From: an uncultured Verrucomicrobiota bacterium
GTDB lineage: Bacteria; Verrucomicrobiota; Verrucomicrobiia; Verrucomicrobiales; V1-33
Assembly (NCBI GenBank): GCA_942492905.1
Contig: OW818657.1
Span: forward strand, 4,096,022-4,160,021
Length of the DNA: 64,000 nt
Reading direction: 5' to 3'
Numbering within the stretch: the first letter of the stretch is position 1; each line of letters begins with the position of its first letter. This document shows, one piece after another, positions 1 to 24,139 of the stretch. The notes under the pieces were generated by a model. That model was not told the origin of the DNA. It saw only the letters and a program-made list of their open reading frames with translations, and did no database searches. The translations under genes and the position numbers were made by a program.

Positions 1-518
1 ACCGTCTCATCGAGTCCTTCAAAGCCACCCTGGAGGAGGCCGCCCTCGCGGATTTCCTCATCCACGTGCTTGATGCCAGCCAGGAGCGGGTCTTCCAGTT
101 CTACGAGACCACCATGGGCGTGCTCAAGGAGCTCGATGCCGATGACAAAAAGATGCTGGTGGTCCTCAACAAGATCGACCTCATTCCTCCGGCGCGCCGC
201 CAGGAAGTGGCGGCCCATTTTGACAAACCTGCCCTCGTCTCCCTCAAGACCGGCGAAGGCATGCCCGCGCTGCTGGAACGCCTCAGTGGCATGATGCTGG
301 AACGCACCCGCCGCATGAAACTCCGCCTGCCCCAGTCGGAATTCGCCCTTATGAGCCTGATCCATGAGCAGGGCAAGGTGATCAGTCAGGACTACGACGG
401 CAACGACATCCTCCTGGATATCATCATGCCGCGCCGCTTCGAGTCCCAACTGGAACCCCACCTCGATCCTCCCCTGCCCGCCCGCGTGCCGGAGGCTTGG
501 GAAACCACCCAGCGTTAG
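1..518 (+). CDS. hflX: GTPase HflX, C-terminal portion (5' end outside window)
   Basis: The frame is open from the window edge (codons from nt 3). It reads RLIESFKATLEEAALADFLIHVLDAS...KKMLVVLNKIDLI, with an NKxD G4 box, followed by an HflX-like C-terminal domain. TAG stop at 516-518. The ORF-track entry 66..518 is only the part after an internal GTG. Confidence 0.85.
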   Translation, partial: RLIESFKATLEEAALADFLIHVLDASQERVFQFYETTMGVLKELDADDKKMLVVLNKIDLIPPARRQEVAAHFDKPALVSLKTGEGMPALLERLSGMMLERTRRMKLRLPQSEFALMSLIHEQGKVISQDYDGNDILLDIIMPRRFESQLEPHLDPPLPARVPEAWETTQR

Positions 519-522
519 TCCC
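423..522 (+). repeat. Direct repeat copy 1 (last 31 codons plus stop of hflX)
   Basis: Hand alignment gives 94/100 identity to 9317..9416. The mismatches are at 443, 449 and 508-511. Weaker similarity continues to about 560 versus about 9455. Confidence 0.9.
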
Positions 523-671
523 GGGCCCGGGCCGGCCTTTTGCGGGAGAATTGCCCCTCCTGCCGGGCCTGCCCCACATCAGATTCTGTCACCGGACTGT
601 TGCTGTCTCCAACAAGGAGGCCTGCGCGTCCGTCATCAGACTTCAGGGCACAGCCATGGAGTCGGAAGATG

Positions 672-3600
672 CTATGGAGTGATAATGATACCCATCCGGA
701 GGAAACGCCGCATCTCCGTGCTGATGGCTGTGGGATCCTTGAAAGTGATCCGGGTGAGGCCGCCCGCAGCAGGGGTGATGGTCACGGTGCCGGGGGGAAG
801 AGCGGCTCCGGAAACGTCAGTCCATTCTGCAACGAGGGGGGATTTCCTGGCCAGAGTAGTCCAGGTGGTGAGGCCCGGACCGCCTTGGAATTCATAGGTG
901 ACGCCGGGGCATCCGTGTCCTCCGGCCAGGGCGGTGGTGGGGAGGTCGATGGAAAGGGTAGTATGGCCATCGGCCGAAATGCCAGCGATGGGCAAGCGGT
1001 CCGCGCCGTGGGGCGCGACGTATGAACGGGGATTGGAGTTGAGCGAGAACTCAAGATCATTGCTCAACCCGTCGTTGTCGTTGTCGGCGGAAATATCGTT
1101 CATGGTTAGACTGTTGGCGGCCAGCCATGCATTGAGACCGTCCGGATGCGGATTGGCCGGCGCCACCCAGCTATCGGGTGTACCGTACCGTTGGCTGCTG
1201 GCAGCCCAGCTGTCCCGCTCTTCGAAATCACCGATGTCCGTGGCGTTGTTCAGGAGGGTCAGACTGTAGCCGGTGGCGTTGGTGTCATACCACGTGATCC
1301 CATAGCTGAAGCAGAGGACGTTGGCATCCCATGGCTTGGGCAGGCGCAGGGCGAGTTGCTCTCCGCTGTTATCCAAGTTGCCGGTATAAAAGCCCGCGAT
1401 ATTCAACCCGGTGCCGTAGCGGCTTTCGAAGAGGACGGGGTCCTTCACCAACAGTATTTCTGCTCCCGGCGCGAGATTGAAGGGCACCGGGAAGAGGAAA
1501 TCGATCCCGTCGTAGAACTCCACGCCGCCAAGGTCGAGAGTGGTGACTCCGGTATTCGTCAACTCGATGAACTCGTAGTTGTTCCCGCCGTCGGCGTTGT
1601 ACATGATTTCGGTGATGCGCAGCGAATTCAGGATATTCACCGCGTTGACGTAGCCGGGATCGTTGGTGCCATTGGGGGCTCCGCCGGTGGCCAGAATGAA
1701 ATAAGCAGTGCCTCCGACACCGCCGGTGCTCACGAGACCCTGGCTGACCGCTTCGACCTGTGGGAATACCCGGACATAGTGCTGCTCCGCTCCGTTGGCG
1801 CTGAAAAGGAGCAGTTCCTCGGTGAGGCTGTCGAGTTTGAAGGAAGTGTGGTTGGCACCGGCGGCGGAATTGCCGTCGGCGATGAGTTTCACAAAACCGT
1901 GGCCGCCGATGAAGCTGAGCGGCGGGAAAGGGGTCATGGGTCCGAAACGGGCATCCGTCAGGACCATGCCACTGAGGCTCGCGGGGAAGTCGGCTGGATT
2001 GGCGAGCTCCACCCAGTCTTCCTTGTAGCGGATGCCGCCGGCGGCGAGCCATTCGTTGATGACAATCTGCGACGGATCGCTCCGGCGGGCGGCAACATTT
2101 GTGGCCAATCCCATGGTTTCCAGCGAAAGCTCCCAAACGGCAGGGGCACCCAGCCGCGAGAGCGAATATCCAGCGGGCAGAGGGCCGAAGACCACACTGT
2201 CGCGCAGGGTATTGGAGGCGTCGAAAAGATAGATGGCATCGCCATCGTTGTCGATCTGCAGGCCGGAGAGCCCGACCGTGGTGAGTCCAGACGGGACCAG
2301 CAGTCCGGTGAGCGGAAGTTCGCCGGGAGTGAGCAGGTCGTCGCTGATGCTCCAGCCGGTGAGATCCACGCTTCCAGCGCTGCGGCTGACCAGTTCCACA
2401 AATTGTTGTGGTGCGGTGGGCGTGGCCGGAGATGGATCGCCCATGACTTCGCTGAGTATCACCACCGGCAGGGTGGCATCCACCGTCCAGGTGCGCGTGG
2501 TGGGAGCAAACTGGGGAGTGCCATCATAAACGCGGGCGGGATCGTTATCCTGCCAGTTGCCGGCCATGTCCTGGCCGATCACTTCGAGGGTGTGCACGCC
2601 GGCGGTCAGTCCGCTGAGGTTGAGGGTGGCCTGGCGGACCGTCGGAGTCGCGCCACGTGGCATGGTGCCTCCGGTGCCAATCTGGGTGGAAACGCTCCAG
2701 GCGCCGCCGTTGAGCCGCCAGCGGTAAGCCACGATGCCGGGGCCGCCGATGGTAAAGCTGGCGGTGGAATCCGCCACGGTCCCGCTGGGGCCGCCGAGCA
2801 GATAAGCCCATTCCGGAATCTCCGCGCCGTAGCTGAGGCCGCCCGGGGCGGTGCCACGGGCAAGGGAATCCATGCGCAGCGAATAATCTTCCGCTCCCTC
2901 TTCGACAAACCCCGGGGCGCCCGCCTGGTTTGGTCCATAGGTCCCGCTGAAGAATCCGCCAGGGTGATTCGGCCCGATGGCCGGGTCGGCGATCTGATCG
3001 AGGAGGTTATGGAAGAACTCGATCTTGGTGGTGATCCCATTGCCCGCCGCATTGGCATCCGGGCCGCTGAAGAAATGAGGCGTGTTGCTGATGATGTTGA
3101 AACCGGTGTAGGCTCCGTCGCCCACGCTGGGATTCGGTCCGTCGCCCGGCACGAAGAAGTTGATCGGGGCACAGGTGACCTGCTGCGATACCGTGGAACC
3201 CTGGAATAAGAAATCAGGGTGAATATTGGCCACGGTATTGTGCTCGAAAATGGTTGCGGTAGCGGCCTTGCAGTTGATGACGTGGTCGAGGTCATAGCAA
3301 ATATTGCGGGCCAGCAGCACGGTGGTGCCGGAGCCCTTGTCGCCGGAGCTGATGGCATTGGAATAGCCGGTGTCGTTGGTCCAGAAATCCTTCCGCGCAT
3401 TCTCAAAGATGTTGCTGGCGATATAGGCATCGCCTCCGAGATCCATGTGTTCATCCCCGGCGAGGCCGCGGAAGTGGTTGTAGCGGCAGTCGATGACAAA
3501 TTGTCCGTTGGACTGATGGCCACTGGCATCGCGTGCGGCCCAGCGCCCACTGTCGCAGTCGAAGACGTCCTGATGGCCGCGGTTGCCGTTGAACTGATTG

Positions 3601-6600
3601 AAATAAACCCGCCAGTGTCCATTTAACGGCAGGCCGTTGGGGAAGTTGGCGGCGTTGGCCCCGGAGACCTCGGGGTCGGTGGTGGGGTACTCCACTTTCA
3701 ACGGTTCCATGCTGTTGTCGGCAGCCGCGATGAAGTCGGTGGTGGGTTCCTCGATGCGTCCCAGCACAGGATCGAAGATGAACATATCCGGGAAGGTTGT
3801 ATGAGTCACGGTGAGCTTGCTGTTCCGACCATAACACATACGGAGGTGGGTGCCGGCGAAAGTGCAGTGATCCACCCAGCCCCATGAACGGATGAACCCC
3901 AGCGATCCGTAGTTTTCCGACCCCGCCGGCGAGGTGCCCTGGGCATTGATGAAGTCGCAGTAGCGGAGGACGTTTTCCTGGTTCATCGAGTCATGGATGC
4001 GCAGGCCTCCCCATTTGGGAGCTCCGGTCTGGGTGCCAAGCTTGATGGGGTCCACATCTGTGGCGCTGTTCGTTCCCGGGATGTGACTGAAGACGATCCT
4101 GCCTGCCGCGGTGCCTTCCGCCCTGATGCGGCCGGTCACAGTGATCCTCACATTCTGGGCGCTTTGCACGTTGACGCCGGGATCAATGCGCAGGGTGACT
4201 CCGGAGGGCACGGTGGTGTTGGCGGTGATGCGGTAGGGCGAACCGGCGAGGGTCCAGCGGACCTCGCCGGCGGGGCTGCCGCCGGCTGTGCCGGTGGGCA
4301 GGGCTCCCATGTCGAGGCGGGAGCCGTCGGGATCGGTCAGAGCCGGGTCAGCGGTATTGATGGCCGGACTGCCGGCGGCGAGAGAGAAGTTCCTCGCCGC
4401 GGCGCTGACGAAGAGCGGGTCCGCCGTTATCGTGCCGGTTCCGGAGGGAGGGGCGGGATCCACCGGATTGGCACCGGCCACATCCTGATAGCAATTGTAG
4501 CTGACCGTGGTCAACGGGTGATCGACCCCGGGGGTGGCGTAGTCATTGAGCATCGGAGTGATGGCGGAGATGATGCAATTCTTGGCATTCACCACAAGTT
4601 GGGCGTTCGGACCGGTGCCGTATTTGTTGCGCACATGGACACCGACATTGTGCCAGTAGACGCCGCCGGACTGGTCCGACTGGTTGGTGGGATGCGACTC
4701 GCCCACGATGGTGCAGCTCTCCATGTTGAGGGTGTAGGTGGTCGCTTCGGAACCGATTTGGGTTTTGCAGGAAATGCCGAAATCGCAGTCAATGATCTGG
4801 GTGCGGCGCACCGTGACGTTGTTCTGCAGGAGGCTCATACCTTTGTCGAAGATGTTGCGCACGATGCAGTCCTCGACAGTCAGGGTTCCGGCCAACAGGT
4901 CGATGCCATCGTCGCCCGCATTGGCAAAGACACTGCGGCGCAGATTGACGGGGCGTCCGCCACTGTCATGGATGTAAATGCAGTCCTCGTCATCCGGCGC
5001 GCCGCTTTCACGGTAGGCCGGGAGCATGTCCGTGAAGTTGCAGTCCTCGATGGTGAGGGCGCTGCCGTCGGTTTCCGGTCCCATGACGCAGCGGGCGAAC
5101 TGGGAGCGGCGCATCACCATGGAGGTGTTGCCGGTGTTGGTCAGGGTCTTCCCGGAAAGATCGGCGATGACGCCGTCATCGAACGTCCAGACTGCTCCAT
5201 TGGCCAGACGGAAGGCGGGACCGGTGCCGGTATGTCCGCCGCCCGGCGAGTGGCAGCCCCGCGAAACGAGGCAGTAGTTCCACGTCGTGGTGGAACCTCC
5301 CACATTAATCTCCCCCCAGCGGCTCCCGGAATCCGCAGCGGTGATGCTGATGGGCTGCGCCAGGGTGCCGGCGGCCTGGATGCTGCCGCTGCCGGTGACG
5401 ATGAGATCGGTGCCGCTGGTGCTCCCCGCGCCGGATGTTCCGGTCATGAGAACGTGGGTGCCGGGGGCTATGACGAGGGTGGCCCCGGTCGGAACGGTGA
5501 GATCACCGGTCACCCGGACCACCCCGCTCCAGTTGGTGATGCCGGCGGGCAGGGTGCCGCTGACGCTGGTGCCGGCAGCTGCGCCGAGACTTGTCAGGGT
5601 TTTGCTGGCGTTGAGCGTTCCGGTGCTGGCGGTGAGGCTGAAACTGCCGGGATCGGCCGCACCGGTGGAGATGCTGGCGCTGAGCTGGAGATCGAAGGTC
5701 ACGTCGCTGCTGCTGGCGTCGTCCTGATGCACCTCCACCGCCAGAGTGTTCACTCCGCTGTGCAACAGGCCCAACGGCAGGGTGACTGCGGCGGTGGAGT
5801 TCTCCCCGGCAGCGGTGGCATATTGATCCAGGGTGACGGCGTCCCCGAGTCCGGCGCTGTTGGCCACCTTGACCCCGTTGACATAGAGCCGGTAGCCGTC
5901 GTCGAATTTCACCTGTCCGGTCACTGCCGTGACGGCGCTGATGTCAGCAATGCTGAAGGTGGTGCGGAAGAGGTAACAGGGCACGTTCTGCGAGCCGGTC
6001 AGGACCGGATTGAAGTCAATGTCAGGAATGGGGGTATTCTCATCGCTGTCCCCGTAGCCGGCCTGGGTCCGGACCGTGGTCCAGGCCGAATCATCAAAAC
6101 CCTCGTTCATCCACGTGGTAGCCGAACTGGCGATAAACGAGGCGAGAGTCGTGGTGTTGAAGTCGCTCTTCGCCTTCCACTCCGATCCAGGCGTGCCGCT
6201 CCCGGAAGTGCCATTCCCGCCCGTGCCGTAGGCAAGGAGCGGTAACGTGGTGGTGGCCCCGCCTCCAATGGTGACAAGGGCGCTGCCCATGCCGTTGGTG
6301 AGGGTCAGGGAGGAGGGGGAAACGGTCACTCCATTGGTGGTCGTCAAGTTGACGGCGGTGTTCCATGCCGCGCGGTTCAGCTGGCCATTTCCGTCCTTCA
6401 GGTCCACGCGGACGAGCACCGGAACCCCGGGGATGAAACTTTCAGGAACCACCATGGTGAGGGAACCCGGTGCCGTGAGGGTGCCATTCACCGTGGTGCC
6501 GGCTGCGGCATTCCAGAGGACCTGGGTGGCATACTCATGGACGACATTGCCTGATCCGTCAGGGCCATCCCAGAAGCGGACCACCACCTGGTTCAGGCCC

Positions 6601-9047
6601 GCACGCAGGGTGCTGCCGCCGCCGGCCGGCACGATCATCTTCCAGGTTCCTGCAGGGTCGGTCCCGAGGGTGCGGTAGAACCATTGGGCCAGCACACCAT
6701 TTACGGTGACGCTGTAGGTTTTCGCCACGTTGAAGGTGCCGCTGAAGGTCGCCGCTCCGTTGGTGGTGGTTTTGTAACCCTCGATGCTGTCCGCGGTGTT
6801 GCCGGTGACAGAGAGGGAGAAGTTCTGTTGGATCTGGGAAAGCACCGCTGCCCGGCGGGCATCCACAAAGCCTTTGATTTCCGCAATGCCGCGATTCGGC
6901 GTGGCCGCGTTGCCGTCGGTCGCGGGCACCCAGCCCTGGAAAAGCTGATCGATGATGGGGTCAATCGTGGCCCGGTTGAACCAGGTATTGATTCCCTCAA
7001 GGACAGCCGTGTAGTATTTCGGGAGCAAGGCCGGATGATTGAACATCCGCCGCAGCCCTACCACCCCGGTGTTGCCCTGCTGCACCTGTTCATCATAGCT
7101 GAAAATGGACCGCGTGATGGGATTGCCGGCACCGGTTCCAATGTCGAATACGTCATCCAGATCATGCGGCACAAAACGGAAGCGCTGGTCCACGATGCCG
7201 CGGTAGAGGCTGGTGTCGTCGGCCCTTCCACTTTGCAGGCCGCCCTCCTGATTTCCCACCAGCGCATCCGTGGCGATGTATCTGTAGAACTGGTCCACAT
7301 CAAGGACGGCACTTACCGCTGCGGGATACGCCGCATCGCTGATGGCCGGTTGCAGCGCGGTGCCGCCGGTTGCCGGAGCACTGAGCACCCGTGTCAGATT
7401 GGCGAGGTCGGTGTAGTCATTGGCGTCCTTGTTGGTCTCCTTGATGAAGGTATCGCTCCACGCCGCCGGGCTGGTGCCTTCATATTGCAGTTCGCCAGAT
7501 CCCCGGTCGCTTCCCACTACCCCGGTGTCGTTGTTGGGAGCATGGTCATCAAGACGGTAGAAATCGCCATCCGGATCCAGCGGATAGTGTTTTTTTGCCC
7601 AGTCCGGCCCGCGGCCTTCCATCATGGCGTAGCGGCCGTACATGTTTCCGCCGGATTCGGCGAGGTTCACTCCGTTGATGCGGAGCTGCGCCACGATGGC
7701 GTCCTGGGGCGCGATTCCTGCTCTGGCAAAAAGCACATTGCCCAGCACCTGACCGTAGCCGAACTGCCAGTTCAATTGCGCGCCGCTGCGCCCATTCCAC
7801 ATGTCGTCGCTGCGGAACCGGATGTTGAAATTGTTGGGTGGTCCCAGCGCGGACGAGAATCCGCGGTTCCGCACGCTGCTGTTATAGACGATTTTGGTGC
7901 CGGTTCCCTCGTGTCCCACAAAGGTCGCGTTGAAGGCGGCCTCGCTCTGTTCCTGACCGCTGGTTGTCTGCAGGGTATTGAGTTCGATGCGTTCCGCATT
8001 GGTCATGACTACCCGCAGGACCGGTTGGTTCCCTGGGGCTGTAAAATCCCGCACGGCGTCGTAGGAATTGTCCACCTGGAGCAAGGCATTTGTTACCTGC
8101 CCAAATGTTTCCGGCAGCACTCCCGGGTTGCTGGTGCGCGCCGGAGCCGGCCAGGTGCGGGTGTGGGTTCCGTCCGTGGCGGAGATATACCACTCGATCA
8201 CAGCCAGATTGGCCTGGGGCGGGATCTGCGCATCGAGGTCCCCGTCGGCGTCGGCATCCGCCATGGGGATAGCGGAAAAGGCCGCCGCGCCATCCAGCCG
8301 CCAGTGCAGGGAGGCCGTCGCTCCGGGCAGTTCATCTTCAATCGTGGCGGAGAACCGGGTCACAGCCGTGCTCGAGGGAATTTCCGGCCGGTGCTGGGCG
8401 GCCTTGATGAGCGGGGCAATGTCGGTGCTGGCAGAGCTGTTCGCCGCGCCAGGTGTGCCCCCGGCGTTGGCGCTGTCCGCCCAGTTTTGACCGCTGCCCG
8501 GCCCCAATAGCGGATTGCGCAGCTCAATGGTCCGGCCGGCGCCATCGGCCAGCGTTTCCCAGCTCCAGCCCCGGTGGGAAAAACTCAGGGGCCCGCGCAC
8601 CCGCCGCGCCCACTCCCCCTCATCGGAATAGATTACATCACTGACTTGATTGCCCAAGGCGTCATCCAATTGCACCTGCTCTCCGCCGCTGGCCAAAGAC
8701 CCCACCCAAGGGCCGAGTACCGCGCCCGAAAAGCCCGGATAGGCCGCTTGGAATTTCCCCAAATCCGCCGCTATCACCAAATACCCGCCCGCAGGGATCA
8801 CCGTCGCCGCCGGGATGGTGAAGGCCACCCCCTTGGTCAGCCGGTAGCCTGACACATCGACCGCCTGAACATCCGGATTGTGGATTTCCAGCCATTCCGC
8901 CATGACATCCTCAGGATTCCCCAGCGAGGAAACGGGGTGATACATCAGTTCATTGATCACCGGTGCCGCCAAAAGGGAACTGCTCAAAACGACAGCAGCA
9001 ATTGATCCCAGCAAAAGCCGGGCTCTTCGAACAGAGGAATAAGTCAT
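672..9047 (-). CDS. Giant secreted multidomain protein (2791 aa): lamin-tail domains, CotH kinase-like domain, right-handed beta-helix region
   Basis: Single uninterrupted 8.4-kb ORF with a signal-like N-terminus (LLLGSIAAVVLSSSLLAAP).
- LTD-like segments: VINELMYHP...WLEIHNP (N-terminal); VILSEVMGDP...FVELVS; VINEWLAAGG...WVELANP; RITEIMYNADGG...FIELTNTG.
- CotH-like block: NFNIRFRSDD...YRLDDH...FRFVPHDLDDVFD.
- Long G/T/N-rich beta-helix-like middle.
- DNDNDG...NDLEF calcium-binding-like motif near the C-terminus. Confidence 0.9.
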   Translation of the reverse strand: MTYSSVRRARLLLGSIAAVVLSSSLLAAPVINELMYHPVSSLGNPEDVMAEWLEIHNPDVQAVDVSGYRLTKGVAFTIPAATVIPAGGYLVIAADLGKFQAAYPGFSGAVLGPWVGSLASGGEQVQLDDALGNQVSDVIYSDEGEWARRVRGPLSFSHRGWSWETLADGAGRTIELRNPLLGPGSGQNWADSANAGGTPGAANSSASTDIAPLIKAAQHRPEIPSSTAVTRFSATIEDELPGATASLHWRLDGAAAFSAIPMADADADGDLDAQIPPQANLAVIEWYISATDGTHTRTWPAPARTSNPGVLPETFGQVTNALLQVDNSYDAVRDFTAPGNQPVLRVVMTNAERIELNTLQTTSGQEQSEAAFNATFVGHEGTGTKIVYNSSVRNRGFSSALGPPNNFNIRFRSDDMWNGRSGAQLNWQFGYGQVLGNVLFARAGIAPQDAIVAQLRINGVNLAESGGNMYGRYAMMEGRGPDWAKKHYPLDPDGDFYRLDDHAPNNDTGVVGSDRGSGELQYEGTSPAAWSDTFIKETNKDANDYTDLANLTRVLSAPATGGTALQPAISDAAYPAAVSAVLDVDQFYRYIATDALVGNQEGGLQSGRADDTSLYRGIVDQRFRFVPHDLDDVFDIGTGAGNPITRSIFSYDEQVQQGNTGVVGLRRMFNHPALLPKYYTAVLEGINTWFNRATIDPIIDQLFQGWVPATDGNAATPNRGIAEIKGFVDARRAAVLSQIQQNFSLSVTGNTADSIEGYKTTTNGAATFSGTFNVAKTYSVTVNGVLAQWFYRTLGTDPAGTWKMIVPAGGGSTLRAGLNQVVVRFWDGPDGSGNVVHEYATQVLWNAAAGTTVNGTLTAPGSLTMVVPESFIPGVPVLVRVDLKDGNGQLNRAAWNTAVNLTTTNGVTVSPSSLTLTNGMGSALVTIGGGATTTLPLLAYGTGGNGTSGSGTPGSEWKAKSDFNTTTLASFIASSATTWMNEGFDDSAWTTVRTQAGYGDSDENTPIPDIDFNPVLTGSQNVPCYLFRTTFSIADISAVTAVTGQVKFDDGYRLYVNGVKVANSAGLGDAVTLDQYATAAGENSTAAVTLPLGLLHSGVNTLAVEVHQDDASSSDVTFDLQLSASISTGAADPGSFSLTASTGTLNASKTLTSLGAAAGTSVSGTLPAGITNWSGVVRVTGDLTVPTGATLVIAPGTHVLMTGTSGAGSTSGTDLIVTGSGSIQAAGTLAQPISITAADSGSRWGEINVGGSTTTWNYCLVSRGCHSPGGGHTGTGPAFRLANGAVWTFDDGVIADLSGKTLTNTGNTSMVMRRSQFARCVMGPETDGSALTIEDCNFTDMLPAYRESGAPDDEDCIYIHDSGGRPVNLRRSVFANAGDDGIDLLAGTLTVEDCIVRNIFDKGMSLLQNNVTVRRTQIIDCDFGISCKTQIGSEATTYTLNMESCTIVGESHPTNQSDQSGGVYWHNVGVHVRNKYGTGPNAQLVVNAKNCIISAITPMLNDYATPGVDHPLTTVSYNCYQDVAGANPVDPAPPSGTGTITADPLFVSAAARNFSLAAGSPAINTADPALTDPDGSRLDMGALPTGTAGGSPAGEVRWTLAGSPYRITANTTVPSGVTLRIDPGVNVQSAQNVRITVTGRIRAEGTAAGRIVFSHIPGTNSATDVDPIKLGTQTGAPKWGGLRIHDSMNQENVLRYCDFINAQGTSPAGSENYGSLGFIRSWGWVDHCTFAGTHLRMCYGRNSKLTVTHTTFPDMFIFDPVLGRIEEPTTDFIAAADNSMEPLKVEYPTTDPEVSGANAANFPNGLPLNGHWRVYFNQFNGNRGHQDVFDCDSGRWAARDASGHQSNGQFVIDCRYNHFRGLAGDEHMDLGGDAYIASNIFENARKDFWTNDTGYSNAISSGDKGSGTTVLLARNICYDLDHVINCKAATATIFEHNTVANIHPDFLFQGSTVSQQVTCAPINFFVPGDGPNPSVGDGAYTGFNIISNTPHFFSGPDANAAGNGITTKIEFFHNLLDQIADPAIGPNHPGGFFSGTYGPNQAGAPGFVEEGAEDYSLRMDSLARGTAPGGLSYGAEIPEWAYLLGGPSGTVADSTASFTIGGPGIVAYRWRLNGGAWSVSTQIGTGGTMPRGATPTVRQATLNLSGLTAGVHTLEVIGQDMAGNWQDNDPARVYDGTPQFAPTTRTWTVDATLPVVILSEVMGDPSPATPTAPQQFVELVSRSAGSVDLTGWSISDDLLTPGELPLTGLLVPSGLTTVGLSGLQIDNDGDAIYLFDASNTLRDSVVFGPLPAGYSLSRLGAPAVWELSLETMGLATNVAARRSDPSQIVINEWLAAGGIRYKEDWVELANPADFPASLSGMVLTDARFGPMTPFPPLSFIGGHGFVKLIADGNSAAGANHTSFKLDSLTEELLLFSANGAEQHYVRVFPQVEAVSQGLVSTGGVGGTAYFILATGGAPNGTNDPGYVNAVNILNSLRITEIMYNADGGNNYEFIELTNTGVTTLDLGGVEFYDGIDFLFPVPFNLAPGAEILLVKDPVLFESRYGTGLNIAGFYTGNLDNSGEQLALRLPKPWDANVLCFSYGITWYDTNATGYSLTLLNNATDIGDFEERDSWAASSQRYGTPDSWVAPANPHPDGLNAWLAANSLTMNDISADNDNDGLSNDLEFSLNSNPRSYVAPHGADRLPIAGISADGHTTLSIDLPTTALAGGHGCPGVTYEFQGGPGLTTWTTLARKSPLVAEWTDVSGAALPPGTVTITPAAGGLTRITFKDPTAISTEMRRFLRMGIIITP

Positions 9048-9316
9048 GGTGGGGGCGGGTTCCCGCGGATAGGACGCGATATGGTAATTATAGGACCAGA
9101 CCAGACTAAACTAAAGAGACATGAAGGTTAAGTGAAAAATCGCCCAAGTAAAAACTTCCACAAGGCCATGCTCCCCCACCAAACGGTGATTTTCCAAGTG
9201 AGGCAGAGCTTCGACCTCGAGTTGATCCCGTCGCGGGGATTGCCCCCTCTTTGAAAAACCGTAACTAACTCCGTGGAAACGGTCGCTGGCGAATGACGAG
9301 GAGGTGACTTTTGGCA

Positions 9317-9416
9317 ATCATGCCGCGCCGCTTCGAATCCCAGCTGGAACCCCACCTCGATCCTCCCCTGCCCGCCCGCGTGCCGGAGGCTTGGGAAACC
9401 AGTGGGCGTTAGTCCC
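9317..9416 (+). repeat. Direct repeat copy 2 (displaced relic of the hflX 3' end)
   Basis: 94/100 identical to 423..522. It retains an intact mini-frame ATG 9320..TAG 9412 (MPRRFESQLEPHLDPPLPARVPEAWETSGR*). Its TAG overlaps the stop (9409-9411) of the convergent gene 9409..10089. Confidence 0.9.
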
Positions 9417-10089
9417 CCAATAGGGCCCTGGGCGGCATTTTGCGGGAAATGTGACTCTCCTCTGACCAGCCGGCCTCCAGCTCCGGCCACAGCATCCGGC
9501 TGTATTTCCAGCGGTGCAGCGCATCCCATGCAGTGAGTTGGTAAAGCAGCACGATGAACCAGAAGGCAAACTGATAGGACGGCTTGGTGCACTTGTGGCG
9601 CAGGCGGCGCTGGGCGAGGAAGGCTGCGGGCCAGCCGCCCATCACTTCAAGCAGGTGCAGGGTCGACTCCGGGATACGCCACAACCCCTCCCTGGCGCGG
9701 TGCTTGTCGGTCGCATAACTCCGCCATGCCAGTGCGTTTACCCCGATGAAGTAGGCTCCCCACGCAGGAGTATTGAAATCGTAAGCCCATCCGGCCACGC
9801 CCGGTACGATCAGCAAAAGAGTGAGGAAAAACAGGGTTCCGGGCCAGGTTCCCCGCCCGGTGGGATACGCCCCGGCAGTCTGCACCGCTTTTACGGCACA
9901 GCGCCGGCCGTTGGCATCGCGGCCCAGGGAGTATTGGATATTCTCGCCCACCGCCGGAGGGCGATGCCATTTCACAAAATCGCGGCGGTGCAGAAAGATC
10001 CGTTCCCGGCCGGAGTCGAGAAACCCATAACCCTTCTGCCGGTCCCATTCAGCCACCCGGGCGCTCAAGATCTGGCGGTTCGCTGTCAT
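9409..10089 (-). CDS. Cold-shock/OB-fold domain plus DUF1294-type membrane protein
   Basis: N-terminal segment AEWDRQKGYGFLDSGRERIFLHRRDF is CSD-like. The hydrophobic C-terminal half carries a DUF1294-like motif (YATDKHRAREGLWRIPESTLHLLEVMGGWPAAFLAQRRLRHKCTK). Confidence 0.75.
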   Translation of the reverse strand: MTANRQILSARVAEWDRQKGYGFLDSGRERIFLHRRDFVKWHRPPAVGENIQYSLGRDANGRRCAVKAVQTAGAYPTGRGTWPGTLFFLTLLLIVPGVAGWAYDFNTPAWGAYFIGVNALAWRSYATDKHRAREGLWRIPESTLHLLEVMGGWPAAFLAQRRLRHKCTKPSYQFAFWFIVLLYQLTAWDALHRWKYSRMLWPELEAGWSEESHISRKMPPRALLGD

Positions 10090-10329
10090 GGCATGGGCAT
10101 CAGGCTAAAGCAGACGGCGGACGGATCGACTCTGCCCTGCCGGGAGGTTTGGACGGTCCAAGGGAAAAGGGTCGAATTTCAAATATTTTCCGCATTCTCC
10201 ATAATAAACCACAGAACTGAAGCTGACAAGTCCGGTTTCCCGCCGCCCCGTTCCGGCGATCGCGATTCCCCGTGCGATCCCTTGGGGCAAAACTGAAAGC
10301 CCCGGGGGCCGGGCCGCGTTTGCACCTGC

Positions 10330-11538
10330 ATGAATCCAGTCCCCTTTTTTGCTGCGGCGGCCCTTACGCTCTTCGCTGGTTCCGTCCGGGCCGACTGGCT
10401 GCAATTCAGAGGTCCCGATGCCTCGGCCCGCGGCACGGGCCAGCCGCCGGTCACGTTCCAGCCGACCGATATCGTGTGGAAAACTGCCCTCCCCGGACGC
10501 GGCTTGTCCTCCCCGGTCATTGTGGGCGGGAAGGTCTTTCTCACCGCCGCCAGTGGCCCGTCTCAGGAAACCCTGCACGTGATCTGCCTGGATAACGCCA
10601 CCGGCAAAACGATATGGGAACGCCGCTTCCAGGCGACCGGCCGCACCATGTGCCACGAGAAGACCAACGTGGCTGCGCCCACCCCGGCCAGTGACGGGAC
10701 CCGCCTCTTCGCGTTGTTTTCCTCGAACGATTGTTTCGGACTCGATCTTGAGGGAAATTTGTTGTGGGTGCGGGGATTCACCCTGGATTATCCCAATGCC
10801 AGCAACAGCCTCGGCCTGGCTTCGTCGCCCATCGTGGTGGGCGGGGTGCTGGTCACCATGGTGGAAAACGACGGGGATTCCTTCACCGTAGGAATTGATC
10901 CCGCGACCGGCACTAATTTGTGGAAACTGGCCCGGCCGAAAAACGCCAACTGGACGTCGCCCACCGCTTGGCAGGATCCCGCCAGCGGCCGGCCCCTCGT
11001 GCTGGTGACCGCGCACGAAGGTGTGCTGGCCCTGGACCCGCGGACGGGCAAGGAGCAGTGGACCCTGCCCAAACCCGGCACCACCATTCCCAGTGCCGGC
11101 ATTGGCGAAAAACACTTTGCGGTGCCGCGCCCCGGCAAGGGCCTGGCCGTGTATACGCTGGCCGGCGGCACCACCCCTCCCGAGCTGGCCTGGGAATCCG
11201 CCCAGATCAATTCCGATACCGCCAGCCCCGTGCTCCAGGGTCCGCGTGTGTTTGCCTTGAATGGCGCGGGCGTGCTGTCCTGCGCCGAACTTGCCTCCGG
11301 CGACCGGCCATGGAAACTCCGCATGGAAGGGCCGTTTTCCGGGAGCCCGGTGATGTCAGGGACCACCCTCTATGCCGTCAGCGAACGCGGCCTGCTGCAA
11401 GCCGTCGACACTACCGCGGCCGAAGGAGCAGTCACCGGAAAACTGGATCTCGGCACCACCATTCTCAGCACCCCTTCCCTCTCCGGAAATTCCATTTATG
11501 TCCGCAGTGATGGGCACGTCTGGCGGATTGGAAAATGA
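10330..11538 (+). CDS. PQQ-like beta-propeller repeat protein (BamB-like fold), secreted
   Basis: ATG start with a signal peptide (FFAAAALTLFAGSVRA). DWLQFRGPD motif and repeated blades of the type SSPVIVGGKVFL, SSPIVVGGVLV and GSPVMSGTTLYAV. Confidence 0.75.
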   Translation: MNPVPFFAAAALTLFAGSVRADWLQFRGPDASARGTGQPPVTFQPTDIVWKTALPGRGLSSPVIVGGKVFLTAASGPSQETLHVICLDNATGKTIWERRFQATGRTMCHEKTNVAAPTPASDGTRLFALFSSNDCFGLDLEGNLLWVRGFTLDYPNASNSLGLASSPIVVGGVLVTMVENDGDSFTVGIDPATGTNLWKLARPKNANWTSPTAWQDPASGRPLVLVTAHEGVLALDPRTGKEQWTLPKPGTTIPSAGIGEKHFAVPRPGKGLAVYTLAGGTTPPELAWESAQINSDTASPVLQGPRVFALNGAGVLSCAELASGDRPWKLRMEGPFSGSPVMSGTTLYAVSERGLLQAVDTTAAEGAVTGKLDLGTTILSTPSLSGNSIYVRSDGHVWRIGK

Positions 11539-11580
11539 CTTGCCGCCCCGCCGAATCCCGCCCCTACTTGGCCCTTCTTT

Positions 11581-12327
11581 ATGAAATCCACCCTCACCGC
11601 CCTCATCCTCACCCTGTCAGTCCTGGTTCCCGGAGCCTCCGCTGAAGACGCCCCTGCCGCCAAGCCCAACACCCTGACGGAAACCGAAAAAGCCGCCGGC
11701 TGGCAGCTGCTCTTCAACGGCTCCGACCTCAAGGGCTGGTCCAATTTCAAAAAAACCACCATCCGTCCCGGCTGGCAGGTGAAGGACGGCCAACTGGTCT
11801 GCGTCAATCCCAAGGACGCCGGCGACCTCGTCAACGCGGCCACCTTCGGCTGGTTCGAACTGCAGCTCGATTATAACATCTCCCCCGCTGGCAACAGCGG
11901 CATCATCTATCACGTCACCGACAAGGGCGATGCCGTCTGGGCCACCGGTCCGGAATTCCAACTCGAGGACAATGAAAAAGCCGCCGACAAAATCCGTTGC
12001 GGCTGGCTCTACGGCCTCTATCAACCCCCGGTCGATCCCGCCACCGGCAAGATCCTCGATGCCACCAAGCCGGCCGGCGAATGGAATCACGTGCGGCTGG
12101 TGATTGCCCCTGACAAGTGCTTCCATGAAATCAATGGCGTGCGCTATTTTGAATACGTCTTCGGCAGCGAGGACTTCAAAAAGCGCATCGCCGACAGCAA
12201 ATTCGGCTCCATGCCGGAGTTCGCCAAATCCGGTTCCGGGTCCATCGCCCTCCAGGGGGACCATGGCTCCGTTGCCTTCCGCAATATCAAGATCAAGCCT
12301 TTGGCAGGCGCCCCCGCGGCCCGGTAA
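11581..12327 (+). CDS. DUF1080 (3-keto-disaccharide hydrolase-like) domain protein, secreted
   Basis: Signal peptide, then GWQLLFNGSDLKGW...WQVKDGQLV...FELQLDYNI...GPEFQLEDN...GSIALQGDHGSVAFRNIKIKPL, which is the typical DUF1080 pattern. Confidence 0.8.
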   Translation: MKSTLTALILTLSVLVPGASAEDAPAAKPNTLTETEKAAGWQLLFNGSDLKGWSNFKKTTIRPGWQVKDGQLVCVNPKDAGDLVNAATFGWFELQLDYNISPAGNSGIIYHVTDKGDAVWATGPEFQLEDNEKAADKIRCGWLYGLYQPPVDPATGKILDATKPAGEWNHVRLVIAPDKCFHEINGVRYFEYVFGSEDFKKRIADSKFGSMPEFAKSGSGSIALQGDHGSVAFRNIKIKPLAGAPAAR

Positions 12328-12376: not shown

Positions 12377-13875
12377 ATGGCAAGCTCCGGCCTCCGCCAT
12401 GACCGCCTCCAGCCCCTTGGCCTGGCTTGGCACGCCGCTTGGTTGATCGCCTGCTTTTTGGCCGTGCCCCAGGCGGCCCCGGCCAAGGCCCCGGCCGCGA
12501 ATCCCGCCGCGCTGGAAAACATCACGCAAATCATCCGGACCCTGACCAAAGACCCCATCGTGCGCTCCGGCACGGTGGGGTTTTATTTGGCTCCCCTGGA
12601 CCAGGCCGATGCCCCGCTCCTCAAACAGAATGCGGGACAAAGTTTCATCCCGGCCTCGACCCTCAAGACGCTGACCACCGGCACTGCTCTCGAAATCCTC
12701 GGCCCGGATTTCCAATTTGAAACCAAGCTGCAGTATATCCCCGCCACCGGCGACCTCATCATCGAAGGCTCCGGCGACCCCTCCCTCGCCCGGTATGGTT
12801 GGGACAGTCTTTTCAATGAGTGGACCGCCGCACTCCAGGCCACGGGAGTGACCGAAATCACGGGCCGCCTCGTCGCCGACGAGTCGGCTTGGGAATCCCG
12901 GGAAATTCCGGCCGGCTGGACCTGGCAGGACATGGGCAACTATTACGCCCCGCCCCTCACACCGCTCTGCTTCCACGACAACGCCTTCCGCCTCTACTTC
13001 CACCTGTCCGGCAATCCCGGCGACGCGGCAGGGTTTTACGATGCGGCCCCGTGGCCGGCGGATCTGGAAATCATCGACCACCTGAGCATCGGCCAGCCCG
13101 GCACCGGCGATAACGCCTACCTCTCGGGCGGGCCCGGCACCCGCCGCTACCCTTGCAGGGCACCCTCGCAGCCGATGTGGACAAGGCCTTCATCCGGGGA
13201 GCCCTGCCCGACCCTGCGTATTTCTGCGTTCGCGAATTCACCGACTGGCTGAATGCCCGCGAACTTCCCGTGCACGGCCAGCCCACCACCACCCGCCGGG
13301 CATTGGCCGGCCGTGAGCCTCCCGCGATCCCCGTGGAAGGAAAAATCCTGATCGCCACCCACCGTTCCCGCCCCCTGCGCGAAATGCTCCCGGCGATCAA
13401 TCATCGCAGCCTCAATCTCGACTGCGAATGCCTCCTGCGCACCTTTGGCAAAGGCGGGGCGGCGGCCGGGCTGCAGGTCATCCGCGACCACCTCGCGGCC
13501 AAAAACCTCCCCCTTGGCGGGTATGAACAAACCGACGGCTGCGGCCTGTCCCGCACCAACATGATCACTCCCGAACTGATGGCCCGCGCCAACGCTGCCG
13601 TGCTGACCGGTCCGCACGGGGCCGTCTTTTTGGATTCCCTGCCCGGATTGGGAGCGAGCGGCAGCACCCTCCACGAACTGAACGCTTCCGGCCCGGCCAC
13701 CATCCACGCCAAAAGCGGCACCATCGAACGCGTCAAGGGATACACCGGCGTAGTGACCTCCGCCGCCGGCCCGCGCTATTGTTTCAGCATCCTCATCAAC
13801 AACTACGACGGCTCCTTCAGCGGAGCGGTCGAGCCCCGGCTGGATGAGCTTTTCGAAGCCCTCGCCCAGCTGTAA
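12377..13875 (+). pseudogene. dacB: D-alanyl-D-alanine carboxypeptidase/endopeptidase (PBP4, peptidase S13), interrupted by a frameshift near 13150
   Basis: ATG at 12377 gives MASSGLRHD..., a signal-like stretch, and FIPASTLKTLTT (SxxK active-site motif). The frame-2 reading is sensible up to ...AYLSGGPGTRRYP. The homologous continuation LQGTLAADVDKAFIRGALPDPAYF...HAKSGTIERVKGYTG (KTG-like box) runs in frame 1 from 13153 to 13875. One extra C in the CCC run at 13150-13152 would fuse the two halves as ...RRYPLQGTL.... Confidence 0.8.
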
Positions 13876-15545: not shown

Positions 15546-15572
15546 TTCTCCAAAATATCGGTAGATAAATAC

Positions 15573-15663
15573 CCATCGGAAACAGCCGTAGAGGCCCCGA
15601 CATCGACAAGGAAGTTCGGGCTATCGGGAAATTTCATGAGACAAGGATGGCAGTTTCCGATGG
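15573..15663. repeat. Inverted repeat, 15-bp arms (14/15) separated by 61 nt, between convergent prfC and the TPR gene
   Basis: Left arm ccatcggaaacagcc (15573-15587). Right arm ggcagtttccgatgg (15649-15663), whose reverse complement is ccatcggaaactgcc. Confidence 0.6.
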
Positions 15664-15668
15664 CGTGA

Positions 15669-17951
15669 TTATGTTCCTTGTTTTAATCCACCCTGCATCT
15701 GTTTGAGATTCCTGCTAGCCATCTGATGATAGTAGGGCAACTCGTCCTTCGTCCAAATCTCCAGCGCCGCACGATACGCCTGCTCCGCGGCCTTCCACAG
15801 CTCCCGTTGCGTCGGACCGCTTTCCCGGTTGGCTTGGAGACTCAATGCGCAGCCCAGATTATTCTGTGTCATCGCCCAGTCCTGCGGGAGAGCATCGCGA
15901 GTGTAAACTTTCAGGGCAGCGCGGAAAGCCTTCACTGCTCCCCCCAGCAGGCGCTGCCCCCGCTCTCCCTCACTCCGTTCCCCTTGGGCTCCCAAGGCGG
16001 TGCCCAGATTATTCTGCGTCATCGCCCAGTCCTGCGGCATCGCCTCGCGGGTGTAAATTTGCAGGGCGGAGCGGTAGGCCTGCACCGCCTCCCAGAGCAG
16101 ACGAACCCTCGTCACTCCCTGGCTCCTCGAACCATAATCCCTCAAGGCAGTACCAAGATTATTCTGAGTCATCGCCCACTGATGTGGCATCGCCTCGCGG
16201 GTATGCACCTCCAGAGCGGCACGGTAGGCCTGCACCACTTCCGCCATTAGGCGCTGCTCTTCCTCGTCCTCTCTCTGCCCGACTTGTTTACTCAGAGCAG
16301 CAGCTAGATTGTTCTGCGTCATCGCCCAGTCCTGCGGCATCGCCTCGCGAGTGTAAACTTGCAGGGCGTCCCGGTAGGCCTGCACCGCCTCCCGGAGCAG
16401 ACGGACCCTCTCCGCCCCCTCACTCCGCAAGCCTTGTTCCCTCAGAGCGTTGCCCATATTACTCTGCGTCATTGCCCAGTCCTGCGGCAACTCCCCCCGG
16501 GTGCGCATCTCCAAGGCGGCTTGGAAGGCCTGCACTGCTTCCCGCAGCAGGCGATTCCCCTCCTGCGGCTCGACTCGTAGGCCGAGTGCAAAACAGGCCA
16601 CCCCCAGATCATTTTGCAACATGGCCCAAATCTGCGGAAAGCCTAGCCGGGTGGCGAGGGTGAAAGCCTCTCGAAAGTGCGAGGGGACGGCGCGGTAGTC
16701 GCCCCGGTAGTAGCAGGCCAGACCGGCACGATAGTAATCGAGAGCGATGGACTCAGTTAGGTCGTCAAGTTGTGCAGCTTTTTGGCGGGCGGCTTCGAGG
16801 GATTTGGATTCAGCTTCCACGAACCGGGTTTCGGCGAGGAGGGCGATGGCTTGGGTGGTGAGGTTGCGCGAAGCAAGGGCGTGGGTCAGGAGGGTTTCCA
16901 GTTCGGTGACAGGGATTTTCAGACGGGTGGCGAGTTCCTGTTCGAGTTCCTGACGGGAGAGGTCGGCTAGAGATTTTCCCTGCCCGGCCTGTTGGCGTGC
17001 AAGATCGGCCATGACCTGCTCCAAACGCGCGAGCTGGGCGAATTGATCGTCGAGCTTGGTGTGGGTGGTGGCGTGGAAGTGACGATTTTCGACGGCGAGG
17101 GTTTGGAGTTGATCCTCAATGCAGCGGATACCGAGCGTGAGTTCGGTTTTCCAGTGTACGAGGAGGGTGCGTCGCTCGGTCTCGAGGGCAGTGGCGGTTT
17201 CCGGAGTGGGATTCTGTAGGAGGATGAGAATTTCGTCGAGTTTCCCGAGGGCGAGGCGGCCGTGCTGCTGGAGGGTTTGGGCGGTGAGGTATTGGTAGGA
17301 GACCCAAGCTTGGGAGGGCTTGCCGTCAGGCGCGGCGTGCATTTGGTCGAGGAAGTGAATCTGGAACTGCGCGTTGAGGTGCTGGCATACCCAGTCGATA
17401 AAAACCCGGCAGGCGGACTCGGCTTGGGAGTCAAGGTGAGCGGCCTTGGTGATGAGCCTTTCTGTGAGGCTGGCGCGGAGGGCGGTGGCCAGGGTATCGC
17501 GCGCGTCGGAGGCGGGACCGGATTGCTCGAGGAGGTCTTTGAGGAAGGCGTCTTCGACTTTGACGATGGGATCGGTGCCGACGGCGGGGCGTGCGGTGAA
17601 GGACCTGAGATCCCGAAACCAAGTCTCCATCGCGAGAATCTGGGGACGGTGGAGGGTATTCCATTCACCGGGGTGGTCTTTTTCAAAGCCTTTGAGAGGG
17701 GGGCCTTTGGCGGCATCATCCATGGTTTTGAGGAAGGCAGCGTGGAAGGCGACGGCGAACCAGTGAGTCGGCTCGCCGGGGGGCCGGCCGAGGACGCTCT
17801 TTAGCCAGTCAGGAAAATGCTCGCAGAGTTTGCCAACGGAGGCCCCAAAGAGCGCGGAGCCGGTAACGGGATCGGGGGAGATGAGCAGCTTGGCGGTTTC
17901 CGCAATGAAATGGCCTCCCAGAACTACAGCTAGAGTTGATACGCCCGGCAT
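15669..17951 (-). CDS. Tetratricopeptide-repeat protein (760 aa) with uncharacterised N-terminal ~430 aa
   Basis: ATG start. The C-terminal ~310 aa consists of six clear modules and one degenerate module of ~42-44 aa (LLREAVQAYRxALxVYTREAMPQDWAMTQNNLGxAL). The N-terminal region has predicted helical/coiled-coil stretches. I saw no P-loop or other catalytic motif. Confidence 0.85.
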   Translation of the reverse strand: MPGVSTLAVVLGGHFIAETAKLLISPDPVTGSALFGASVGKLCEHFPDWLKSVLGRPPGEPTHWFAVAFHAAFLKTMDDAAKGPPLKGFEKDHPGEWNTLHRPQILAMETWFRDLRSFTARPAVGTDPIVKVEDAFLKDLLEQSGPASDARDTLATALRASLTERLITKAAHLDSQAESACRVFIDWVCQHLNAQFQIHFLDQMHAAPDGKPSQAWVSYQYLTAQTLQQHGRLALGKLDEILILLQNPTPETATALETERRTLLVHWKTELTLGIRCIEDQLQTLAVENRHFHATTHTKLDDQFAQLARLEQVMADLARQQAGQGKSLADLSRQELEQELATRLKIPVTELETLLTHALASRNLTTQAIALLAETRFVEAESKSLEAARQKAAQLDDLTESIALDYYRAGLACYYRGDYRAVPSHFREAFTLATRLGFPQIWAMLQNDLGVACFALGLRVEPQEGNRLLREAVQAFQAALEMRTRGELPQDWAMTQSNMGNALREQGLRSEGAERVRLLREAVQAYRDALQVYTREAMPQDWAMTQNNLAAALSKQVGQREDEEEQRLMAEVVQAYRAALEVHTREAMPHQWAMTQNNLGTALRDYGSRSQGVTRVRLLWEAVQAYRSALQIYTREAMPQDWAMTQNNLGTALGAQGERSEGERGQRLLGGAVKAFRAALKVYTRDALPQDWAMTQNNLGCALSLQANRESGPTQRELWKAAEQAYRAALEIWTKDELPYYHQMASRNLKQMQGGLKQGT
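15719..16643 (-). repeat. In-frame tandem coding repeats (~126-132 nt TPR-pair modules) inside the TPR gene
   Basis: Recurring DNA blocks such as ...attattctg(c/a/t)gtcatcgcccagtcctgcgg(c/g)a... match the WAMTQNN motif. Six copies are visible by eye. Confidence 0.8.
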
Positions 17952-18272
17952 GGTGGATGGAGGCTAACGCTGAGCACGCAATTGTCGAAGGGAATCGCGG
18001 GCCGTAGGCACATACCCTCAAAATACTGGAGCACGCCATCAACTCGACAAAACGGTGCCGCCAAGCTCAACCCCCTGCGCTGTTCCAGCAGTATTAGTAT
18101 GACAGCAATAGTTTTACCCTTTGCCGGTCCGTGGGCAGAGGTCCAGCGACTCGGCGGGTCGGGTGAATTCGGCAGGAAAGGTGGCAGGAAGCAGAAAAAC
18201 CCTCCATTAATCCTCTGACAGTGAATGCCTTACACCAAAATGAGCCGAATCCAGGAGTTACGCCCGGAAGCC

Positions 18273-18512
18273 GTCTCCTTATAAGGAGACGCTCTTCTCC
18301 TTATCGGGAGGACCCCTTCTCTTGACAAGGAGAGACCCTTCTCCTTAGCAGGAGGACCCCTTCTCTTGATAAGAAGACACCCTTCTCCTTACCAGGAAGA
18401 CCTCTTCTCTTGATACGGAGACACCCTCCTCCTTATCAGGAGGACCCCTTCTCTTGACAAGGAGAGACCCTTCTCCTTAGCAGGAGGACCTCTTCTCTTG
18501 ATAAGGAGATGA
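18273..18512. repeat. Tandem array of 11 x 22-bp palindromic pyrimidine-tract/purine-tract units (44-bp and 132-bp higher-order periodicity), noncoding
   Basis: The pyrimidine tract TCTC(C)TT starts at 18274, 18296, 18318, 18340, 18362, 18384, 18406, 18428, 18450, 18472 and 18494, an exact 22-nt phase. Each tract is followed 2-4 nt later by AAGGAGA or AGGAGGA. Positions 18273-18290 (gtctccttataaggagac) form a perfect palindrome. Confidence 0.95.
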
Positions 18513-18638
18513 CCTTCCCCGGAGCCAAAGGCGGGGCGCTTCAATCCCGGTTTCTGCCCGGCCATGGGTTGGCTGTCCCTGCTCTGCTACTCGGGCAGGA
18601 GCCTCGTCCACCCCGGCGGCGGCGGCTATTGTCAAAGT

Positions 18639-24054: not shown

Positions 24055-24139
24055 GGGTGGATTCCAGAGTGGCCAAATGGGGCAGACTGTAAATCTGCTG
24101 TCTTCGACTTCGAAGGTTCGAATCCTTCTCCGCCCACCA
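24055..24139 (+). tRNA. tRNA-Tyr (anticodon GTA), class II with long variable arm, encoded CCA
   Basis: GGGTGGA acceptor stem pairs with TCCGCCC (one G-T pair). Anticodon loop is cagaCTGTAAAtctg. Long variable arm (tgtcttcgacttcgaag). T-arm GGTTCGAATCC. Ends ACCA. Closely resembles E. coli tRNA-Tyr from memory. Confidence 0.95.

Follow-up and report, generated by a model that had tools for sequence, protein, structure and literature searches.

A giant LTD/CotH gene inserted at the convergent hflX/DUF1294 junction of a Verrucomicrobiota genome and flanked by a 139/145-bp target duplication

How does a single 8.4-kb gene come to lie between two copies of the 3′ end of another gene, and was it carried there by an integrase? 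The question is raised by a stretch of 64,000 nucleotides (hereafter, the window) from an uncultured Verrucomicrobiota bacterium (GenBank assembly GCA_942492905.1, contig OW818657.1, positions 4,096,022 to 4,160,021 of the forward strand), in which the 3′ end of hflX occurs on both sides of a gene for a protein of 2791 amino acids. A first reading of this DNA, made from the sequence alone (the original prediction), took the giant gene for cargo that had been inserted into the hflX 3′ end, and the repeats for the att-like scar of an integrative island. The features on which the argument rests are as follows, in window coordinates; L numbers denote loci of relatives and of other genomes.

3 to 518, plus strand: 3′ part of hflX (171 codons, cut by the window start; TAG at 516–518), the functional copy, with a Pfam HflX_C/GTPase assignment.
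423 to 561, plus strand: repeat copy 1 (139 bp), consisting of the last 31 hflX codons and the stop codon (423–518), then a degraded remnant of the DUF1294 3′ end with a 6-bp deletion (519–561).
562 to 9316, minus strand: inserted segment (8755 bp), with breakpoints from blastn against the empty sites L001 and L002.
672 to 9047, minus strand: giant gene (2791 amino acids), with a signal-peptide-like N-terminus, four lamin-tail domains (LTDs) and a CotH kinase-like domain (Pfam).
9317 to 9461, plus strand: repeat copy 2 (145 bp), consisting of a non-coding remnant of the hflX 3′ end (9317–9412), then the intact DUF1294 3′ end (9409–9461, read on the minus strand).
9409 to 10089, minus strand: intact gene for a DUF1294 (YsdA-like) membrane protein (226 amino acids; Pfam DUF1294), 95% identical to the L001 orthologue.

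In a self-alignment of the window, positions 423–522 and 9317–9416 are identical at 94 of 100 sites, which is the figure given by the original prediction. The two copies share a perfect core of 58 nt (450–507 and 9344–9401), which occurs twice in the window and in none of 100 dinucleotide-preserving shuffles. The weaker similarity said to continue for about 40 nt was also recovered: after a 6-bp gap in copy 1, positions 523–561 and 9423–9461 are 79% identical. Left of 423/9317 and beyond 561/9461, local alignments score no better than shuffles, so the duplicated unit comprises 139 bp in copy 1 and 145 bp in copy 2. A continuation past 561/9461 (e.g., GCCGGGCCT versus GCCGGCCT after a 7-bp gap) was rejected as statistically unsupported. 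The window contains no other long repeat that brackets a gene. Rfam and tRNA scans of the repeat region returned nothing relevant, and a TTCGAATCC motif in copy 2, considered as the T-arm of a tRNA, was rejected because it is coding sequence.

Each copy completes one gene, hflX in the case of copy 1 and DUF1294 in the case of copy 2. The 171 HflX residues encoded in the window are 100% identical to those of HflX in L001 and L003, and the relatives' loci carry full-length HflX domains. Copy 2 matches HflX residues 141–171 at 93.5% (tblastn) and keeps the hflX TAG (9410–9412), which forms a 4-bp overlap with the DUF1294 TAA (TTA at 9409–9411 on the plus strand). Pfam backs the assignment of both genes in the original prediction, and the tail of copy 1, with its 6-bp deletion, is the degraded 3′ end of the neighbouring gene that had been proposed there. 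As a minor observation, the right end of the insert contributes GAGGAGGTGA, a full Shine–Dalgarno-like motif located 14 nt 5′ of an in-frame ATG (9320) of the hflX remnant; the potential open reading frame of 30 codons formed with this remnant (9299–9412, plus strand; MPRRFESQLEPHLDPPLPARVPEAWETSGR, then a stop codon) has no promoter evidence and is probably accidental.

The state of the junction before the giant gene is seen in relatives. A scan of a genome collection with the DUF1294 protein found three close relatives at first, and eleven contigs from different samples, representing two DUF1294 alleles and one HflX allele, were added. Thirteen contigs from separate samples and assemblies (L001, L002, L100–L110) were read as DNA for the empty site, and their flanks are about 87–96% identical to those of the window (about 91–94% for L001 and L002). 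In all thirteen, hflX is convergent with DUF1294, the stop codons overlap by 4 bp, the repeated segment is present in one copy, and the giant gene is absent. In L001, window positions 3–561 align to 11193–10629, and the window from 9317 onward aligns to 10773–4530 (blastn); because these two parts of the window hit overlapping stretches of one locus in L001 and L002, the 145 bp are present there once. The 8755 bp at 562–9316 have no counterpart at the junction in any relative examined. A metagenome scan with the HflX fragment yielded two moderately close loci (85% and 68% amino-acid identity), neither of which has DUF1294 downstream.

The giant-gene segment (562–9316) is therefore inserted at the hflX/DUF1294 junction, and the single-copy empty sites in relatives show that this insertion is flanked by a target duplication of 139/145 bp. 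The empty site forecast by the original prediction (convergent hflX and DUF1294 with a single copy of the segment) is present in all relatives examined that lack the insert, and their shared convergent overlap agrees with its view that copy 2 preserves the ancestral junction. Relatives that lack the giant gene and still carry both copies, which it had named as a refuting observation, were looked for and not found among the loci examined. Its proposal of a cargo insertion into the hflX 3′ end thus holds as regards an insertion at this junction, whereas the att-scar, integrative-island part is unsupported, as set out below. An assembly artefact (a chimeric join or a misplaced contig) is extremely improbable: nothing positive speaks for it, the copies, with differences at 6 of 100 positions and an indel, do not represent one repeat that was collapsed or copied, each of them supplies the end of a different gene, both genes being intact, and the exact giant protein has its record on one contig of 6.3 Mb.

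The insert is made up of the giant gene, a 3′ flank of 110 bp and a 5′ flank of 269 bp. As the original prediction stated, the repeats enclose exactly one gene (672–9047, minus strand), whose promoter side faces copy 2 and whose stop codon faces copy 1. The protein has, besides its LTD and CotH domains, a faint beta-helix-type hit (DUF5123). The 5′ flank contains the following element.

9087 to 9115, minus strand: promoter-like element read by eye, with TTTAGT (9115–9110), a 17-nt spacer and a perfect TATAAT (9092–9087), about 40 nt upstream of the ATG.

To judge from these hexamers, the element may act as the promoter of the giant gene. A consensus promoter scan at both junctions was negative and missed it, since its −35 hexamer matches at three of six positions. 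The ends of the insert carry no terminal inverted or direct repeats, the best inverted-repeat alignment scoring below the shuffle mean, and the non-coding ends have no match in the rest of the window, in 110 fetched loci or in plasmids (blastn, tblastx).

Islands and integrative elements commonly insert in the 3′ ends of genes or tRNAs, and cis-mobilizable elements (CIMEs) that lack a recombinase are found, for example, at the fda 3′ end in Streptococcus thermophilus. The present locus resembles these systems in its repeat-flanked cargo, in the completion of the target gene by one repeat (att-like repeats at 423–561 and 9317–9461, one of them at the target 3′ end) and in the single-copy empty site of relatives; like a CIME, the insert is devoid of a recombinase. 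The giant gene might accordingly be an integrase-mediated island or a cis-mobilizable remnant that brought its own hflX-like att copy, in which case the repeats would be attL and attR and the recombinase would have been lost or would act in trans. The overlap of the direct repeats with the 3′ end of a housekeeping gene and the empty sites fit this explanation. Against it, Pfam identifies no integrase or transposase in the insert, at either of its ends or in the ~20 kb that follow (the check extended to genes at ~31.8 kb), and to that extent the claim that none remains in the window is upheld. With a single gene and non-coding ends of 110 and 269 bp, the insert is too small to conceal one. To the right follow ordinary chromosomal genes (among them BamB-like, 3-keto-disaccharide hydrolase, S13 peptidase and prfC).

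Composition likewise argues against an island. The GC content of the insert is host-like, and the comparison of codon usage between 672–9047 and core genes that had been suggested as a check revealed no difference: the synonymous codon usage of the giant gene correlates with that of the pooled neighbours at r = 0.975, as good as any native gene. The giant gene bears no compositional or codon-usage mark of foreign origin.

Sister lineages have independently received a different gene at this junction.

L003 1417 to 3108, and L090–L099 about 10634 to 12325, minus strand: gene for a 563-amino-acid AAA_15/AAA_21 ATPase at the hflX/DUF1294 junction.

The best PADLOC matches of this protein are NsnB, AriA/AriAB, GajA and Old, which makes it a single defence-like gene. 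The ATPase insert was seen in 70 or more contig blocks, which come from many freshwater metagenomes; it deletes 61 bp of the empty site (L100 10616–10676), has no flanking repeat, and leaves DUF1294 with a new, shorter C-terminus. Close relatives therefore have at this junction the giant gene (the window), the ATPase gene (L003, L090–L099) or nothing (L001, L002, L100–L110). The hflX/DUF1294 junction is a small insertion hotspot, which tolerates insertions because the genes lie tail to tail and no promoter is disrupted. Chromosomal hotspots, as Oliveira and colleagues reportedly described them in 2017, are sites at which one and the same core-gene pair encloses accessory genes that vary between related genomes. 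The hflX/DUF1294 interval, which in close lineages is empty or holds the giant gene or an AriA/GajA-like ATPase gene, is alike in this respect, but differs in being a 4-bp overlap of convergent genes and in receiving only single genes. Since the target is an overlap rather than an intergenic space, one of the two gains carries a long duplication that rebuilds both gene ends.

All four breakpoints differ between the giant-gene and ATPase events, so there is no common crossover core at the junction, and the reuse of such a core by independent integrations, as expected of an integrase, is not seen. Among 24 relatives' loci that span the junction, a limited sampling, none has an integrase-bearing element there. 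For the region upstream of the repeats (window 1–422, hflX), the window clusters with L001 and L003 (about 96%) as against a second group consisting of L002, L090 and L100–L106 (about 94%); this stretch was compared with window 9475–10847 against L001–L106 in an examination of mosaicism. The ATPase insert occurs in both hflX groups (L003 and L090), which points to recombination or mosaicism around the junction.

The two repeat copies themselves indicate where the duplicate came from. Over the 92 sites outside a block of four bases, the hflX remnant in copy 2 departs from copy 1 at two, from L001 at four and from L003 or L090 at six, and T497 is common to both copies and present in no close relative. 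With each copy the nearest match of the other outside the block, the duplicate seems to derive from the local target sequence and not to have been imported. The block (508–511 and 9402–9405) is CCCA in copy 1, L001, L003 and L110, GTGG in copy 2, and GCGG in L010 and the relatives of the second group. The last codons of hflX exist as two alleles, ...ACC CAG CGT (T-Q-R) and ...AGC GGG CGT (S-G-R), with three bases differing in the four-base block; these alleles are patchy across lineages, and the window holds one allele per repeat copy. GCGGGCG is the exact inverted complement of CGCCCGC (479–485 and 9373–9379), located 23 nt upstream, so that the two form a perfect 7-bp inverted repeat. Possibly, a recurrent multi-base change templated by this quasi-palindrome could flip the block; recombination between alleles is the alternative.

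In copy 1, the DUF1294 remnant has lost 6 bp and acquired five substitutions, each to G or C, which create CCCGGGCCCGGGCCGGCC. The suggestion that C528 and five "copy-1-unique" substitutions are specific to this lineage was withdrawn, as C528, C532, C554, C556 and A449 are also found in L110, which is a more distant relative. Given that C532, C554, C556 and A449 (the last in hflX) recur in this locus, part of the difference between the copies may be allelic and not due to decay. The same remnant takes part in a predicted fold.

529 to 574, no strand assigned: GC-rich hairpin over the boundary of copy 1 and the insert (−30 to −34 kcal/mol, z = −1.7).

Three of the copy-1 changes form base pairs with the start of the insert in this hairpin, a gain of about 5 kcal/mol, and the fold is not significant; with the five substitutions reverted it survives, its energy changing from −30.4 to −25.6 kcal/mol. 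The hairpin lacks a U-tract, and consensus terminator scans at both junctions were negative. It is at most a weak candidate for a terminator between the now-convergent hflX and giant genes, and a selected terminator is not claimed, because the fold is only marginally better than those of shuffles and outlasts the reversion.

The differences between the copies bear on the integrase explanation in both directions. Divergence in copy 1 is much higher in the DUF1294 remnant than in the hflX part, a pattern that an att site brought by an element would show if selection had acted on its hflX part alone, and the four-base block differs along allelic lines. In opposition to this, copy 2 is nearest to copy 1 outside the block and not to a foreign allele, and the ATPase insert, with other breakpoints, lacks repeats. 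The searches made brought to light no related cargo that carries these repeats, and a literature search found no pairing of hflX as an integration site with genomic islands. The locus also departs from islands and CIMEs at 3′ ends in that no cognate integrase or integrative and conjugative element is known for the site or was found, the repeats look locally copied, the cargo is a single gene of host-like composition, and a second insert has another crossover. The absence of a recombinase and of terminal repeats, the host-like composition and the mutual closeness of the copies together tell against the att-scar reading of the original prediction, which we regard as unlikely; entry mediated by an integrase or a transposase is disfavoured.

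The account that we favor, with moderate confidence, is a one-off, non-site-specific insertion of a self-contained transcription unit accompanied by a long local target duplication. A secreted-protein gene of the LTD/CotH type with its own promoter region would have entered the 4-bp overlap of the convergent core genes hflX and DUF1294, and the event would have copied some 145 bp of target (96 bp from the end of hflX and ~45 bp from that of DUF1294), such that each copy completes one gene and the redundant half of each becomes a decaying remnant. Two enzymatic routes may be envisaged. A staggered or resected break might have been repaired around foreign DNA and then filled in; or a replicative template switch to a donor might have returned 145 bp behind the point of departure. 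The minimal homology for RecA recombination is shorter than 58 bp, and the identical 58-bp core would allow a RecA-mediated precise deletion that restores a functional empty site. Two other indels near the site (a few kb off) have no long flanking repeats, which indicates that the duplication is a single event and not a habit of this genome.

Several observations weigh against this account. A duplication of 139–145 bp far exceeds known transposon duplications. Transposons and insertion sequences produce target duplications of 2–15 bp; the present case resembles them in having a direct target duplication immediately beside the insert and differs in its length and in lacking a transposase and terminal inverted repeats. 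A literature search on long target-site duplications in bacteria returned nothing pertinent. The CCCA versus GTGG block by which the copies differ matches two alleles segregating among relatives. Decay is unequal, with about six events in the 43-bp DUF1294 remnant of copy 1 versus about two in the 96-bp hflX remnant of copy 2 (p ~ 0.01 at equal rates, a binomial estimate), whereas a symmetric duplication followed by neutral decay predicts otherwise. Among the sites at which the copies differ, copy 1 shares the state of the more distant relative L110 at seven (443, 449, 532, 548, 550, 554 and 556) and at the CCCA block, and copy 2 shares it at two sites and at the 6-bp indel, which could mean that the copies have different allelic origins. 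Finally, 64 kb of a 6.3-Mb genome was examined, and a recombinase acting in trans or a source copy may lie elsewhere.

The allelic differences would be natural if one copy had come from another strain. A circle carrying the giant gene and one 145-bp segment, perhaps from a closely related strain that might already have held the arrangement, would integrate by a single RecA-dependent crossover within the segment, yielding exactly the observed order of segment, insert and segment. Such Campbell-type, single-crossover integration of circular DNA is used in insertion-duplication mutagenesis, in which, as here, a segment of the order of 10² bp is duplicated on both sides and recombination between the copies can undo the event. 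The block and the sites shared with L110 fit this explanation, as do the mosaic affinities of the flanks among relatives, and the duplicated segment is of the host lineage (the copies being mutually closest outside the block) and long enough for RecA, its 58-bp identical core exceeding the minimal length for homologous recombination. The analogy is incomplete: a natural circular precursor is not known here, and an illegitimate join would still be needed to bring the giant gene and the 145-bp segment together in the first place; the explanation only shifts the origin of these junctions to another genome. No other genome or metagenome contig was found with the arrangement or with a close homologue of the giant gene, and the rare T497 is present in both copies. 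We consider this explanation doubtful, if worth keeping in view.

The giant protein is a member of a 2.7–2.8-thousand-amino-acid LTD/CotH family across Verrucomicrobiota. Its best non-self match is 70% identical in amino acids (about 73% in nucleotides), and similarity ends at the limits of the coding sequence. Among the 120 best hits, no homologue exceeds 73% identity, despite dozens of assemblies that sample the hflX/DUF1294 clade (defined by HflX at ≥90% identity, dozens of sequences). In a calibration on one 2.32-Mb contig, an HflX of 78% identity accompanies a giant protein of 64% identity. The giant protein has thus diverged about as far as would be expected under vertical descent, which is what would be seen if the arrangement predated the split of the relatives, was lost precisely and recurrently, and had its hflX parts kept similar by gene conversion. 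Host-like codon usage, a DUF1294 remnant as diverged as between-lineage orthologues, and repeats that offer an easy route of loss are also consistent with an old insertion. This history would nevertheless require at least three to four independent losses together with ongoing gene conversion, and it is opposed by the presence of just one copy in 13 of 13 insert-free contigs and by the closeness of the neutral hflX remnant of copy 2 to copy 1 (two sites and one block), when the selected copy of L001 differs at six sites. It is quite unlikely.

Under the favored account of a one-off insertion, the lack of a close homologue despite dense sampling of the clade implies that the donor is unsampled. 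The gene may have been gained horizontally from a compositionally similar relative, or may have been relocated with loss of the source copy, alternatives that 64 kb cannot separate; if it was transferred, the direction would be from an unsampled, compositionally similar Verrucomicrobial donor. A scan of viral contigs with the giant protein found no relative. Homologues of the giant gene occupy four different contexts in other genomes, and no flanking direct repeats surround them at these four loci. At L004 (18343–18346) and L005 (14349–14362), the homologue lies tail to tail with a CHAD-domain gene, overlapping it or separated from it by 12 bp; a CHAD-MgtC-DEAD block is conserved downstream and the upstream neighbours differ (ribD versus Usp), so that the upstream side is the variable one there.

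The 139/145-bp duplication could also be read not as an accident of repair but as the signature of an undescribed route for the insertion of single genes in bacteria. In one form of it, a host or trans-acting enzyme would cut the strands of tail-to-tail junctions at points ~145 nt apart, a distance of about one hairpin-bounded unit, and promoter-bearing giant genes would, if this were true, hop between junctions of convergent genes with no mobility gene of their own. The varied contexts of the giant family fit this reading loosely, and it is opposed by the absence of flanking repeats from the other four loci and from the neighbouring indels; it is very unlikely.

As a strain-specific gain of a single gene, the event is well documented and fairly ordinary; the length of the duplication (~145 bp of target) is unusual. 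The locus provides a clean, resolved case in which an 8.4-kb surface-protein gene was gained between overlapping convergent core genes with damage to neither. It illustrates that finding a long repeat beside an insert at a gene's 3′ end is not proof of an island brought by an integrase, which matters for the automated calling of islands and att sites, and it identifies a small hotspot, the hflX/DUF1294 junction, in a Verrucomicrobial clade that is widespread in fresh water.

Other parts of the window vary among the relatives as well. A stretch of 1.39 kb (12485–13871) that overlaps an S13 peptidase-like open reading frame is present in the window and in L001 and is replaced by ~150 bp in relatives of the second group (L002, L100, L104, L090); it has no flanking repeats. 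A second variable spot extends from prfC to a DUF7133/cupredoxin gene (15548–18573), also with no long flanking repeats. In the window it contains a gene for a 760-amino-acid TPR-like protein with internal 150-bp repeats (15852–16554, 4.7 copies) and a 44-bp tandem array, in L104 a gene for 192 amino acids, and in L100 and L090 a gene for 890 amino acids together with DnaJ-GrpE-HSP70. The window has a single tRNA gene, tRNA-Tyr (GTA), at 24055–24139 on the plus strand. The tandem array (18274–18509), located between the TPR gene and the DUF7133 gene, is non-coding and comprises 5.4 copies of the 44-bp unit with 85% matches; each unit consists of two related 22-bp halves with a short inverted repeat (TCTCC...GGAGA).

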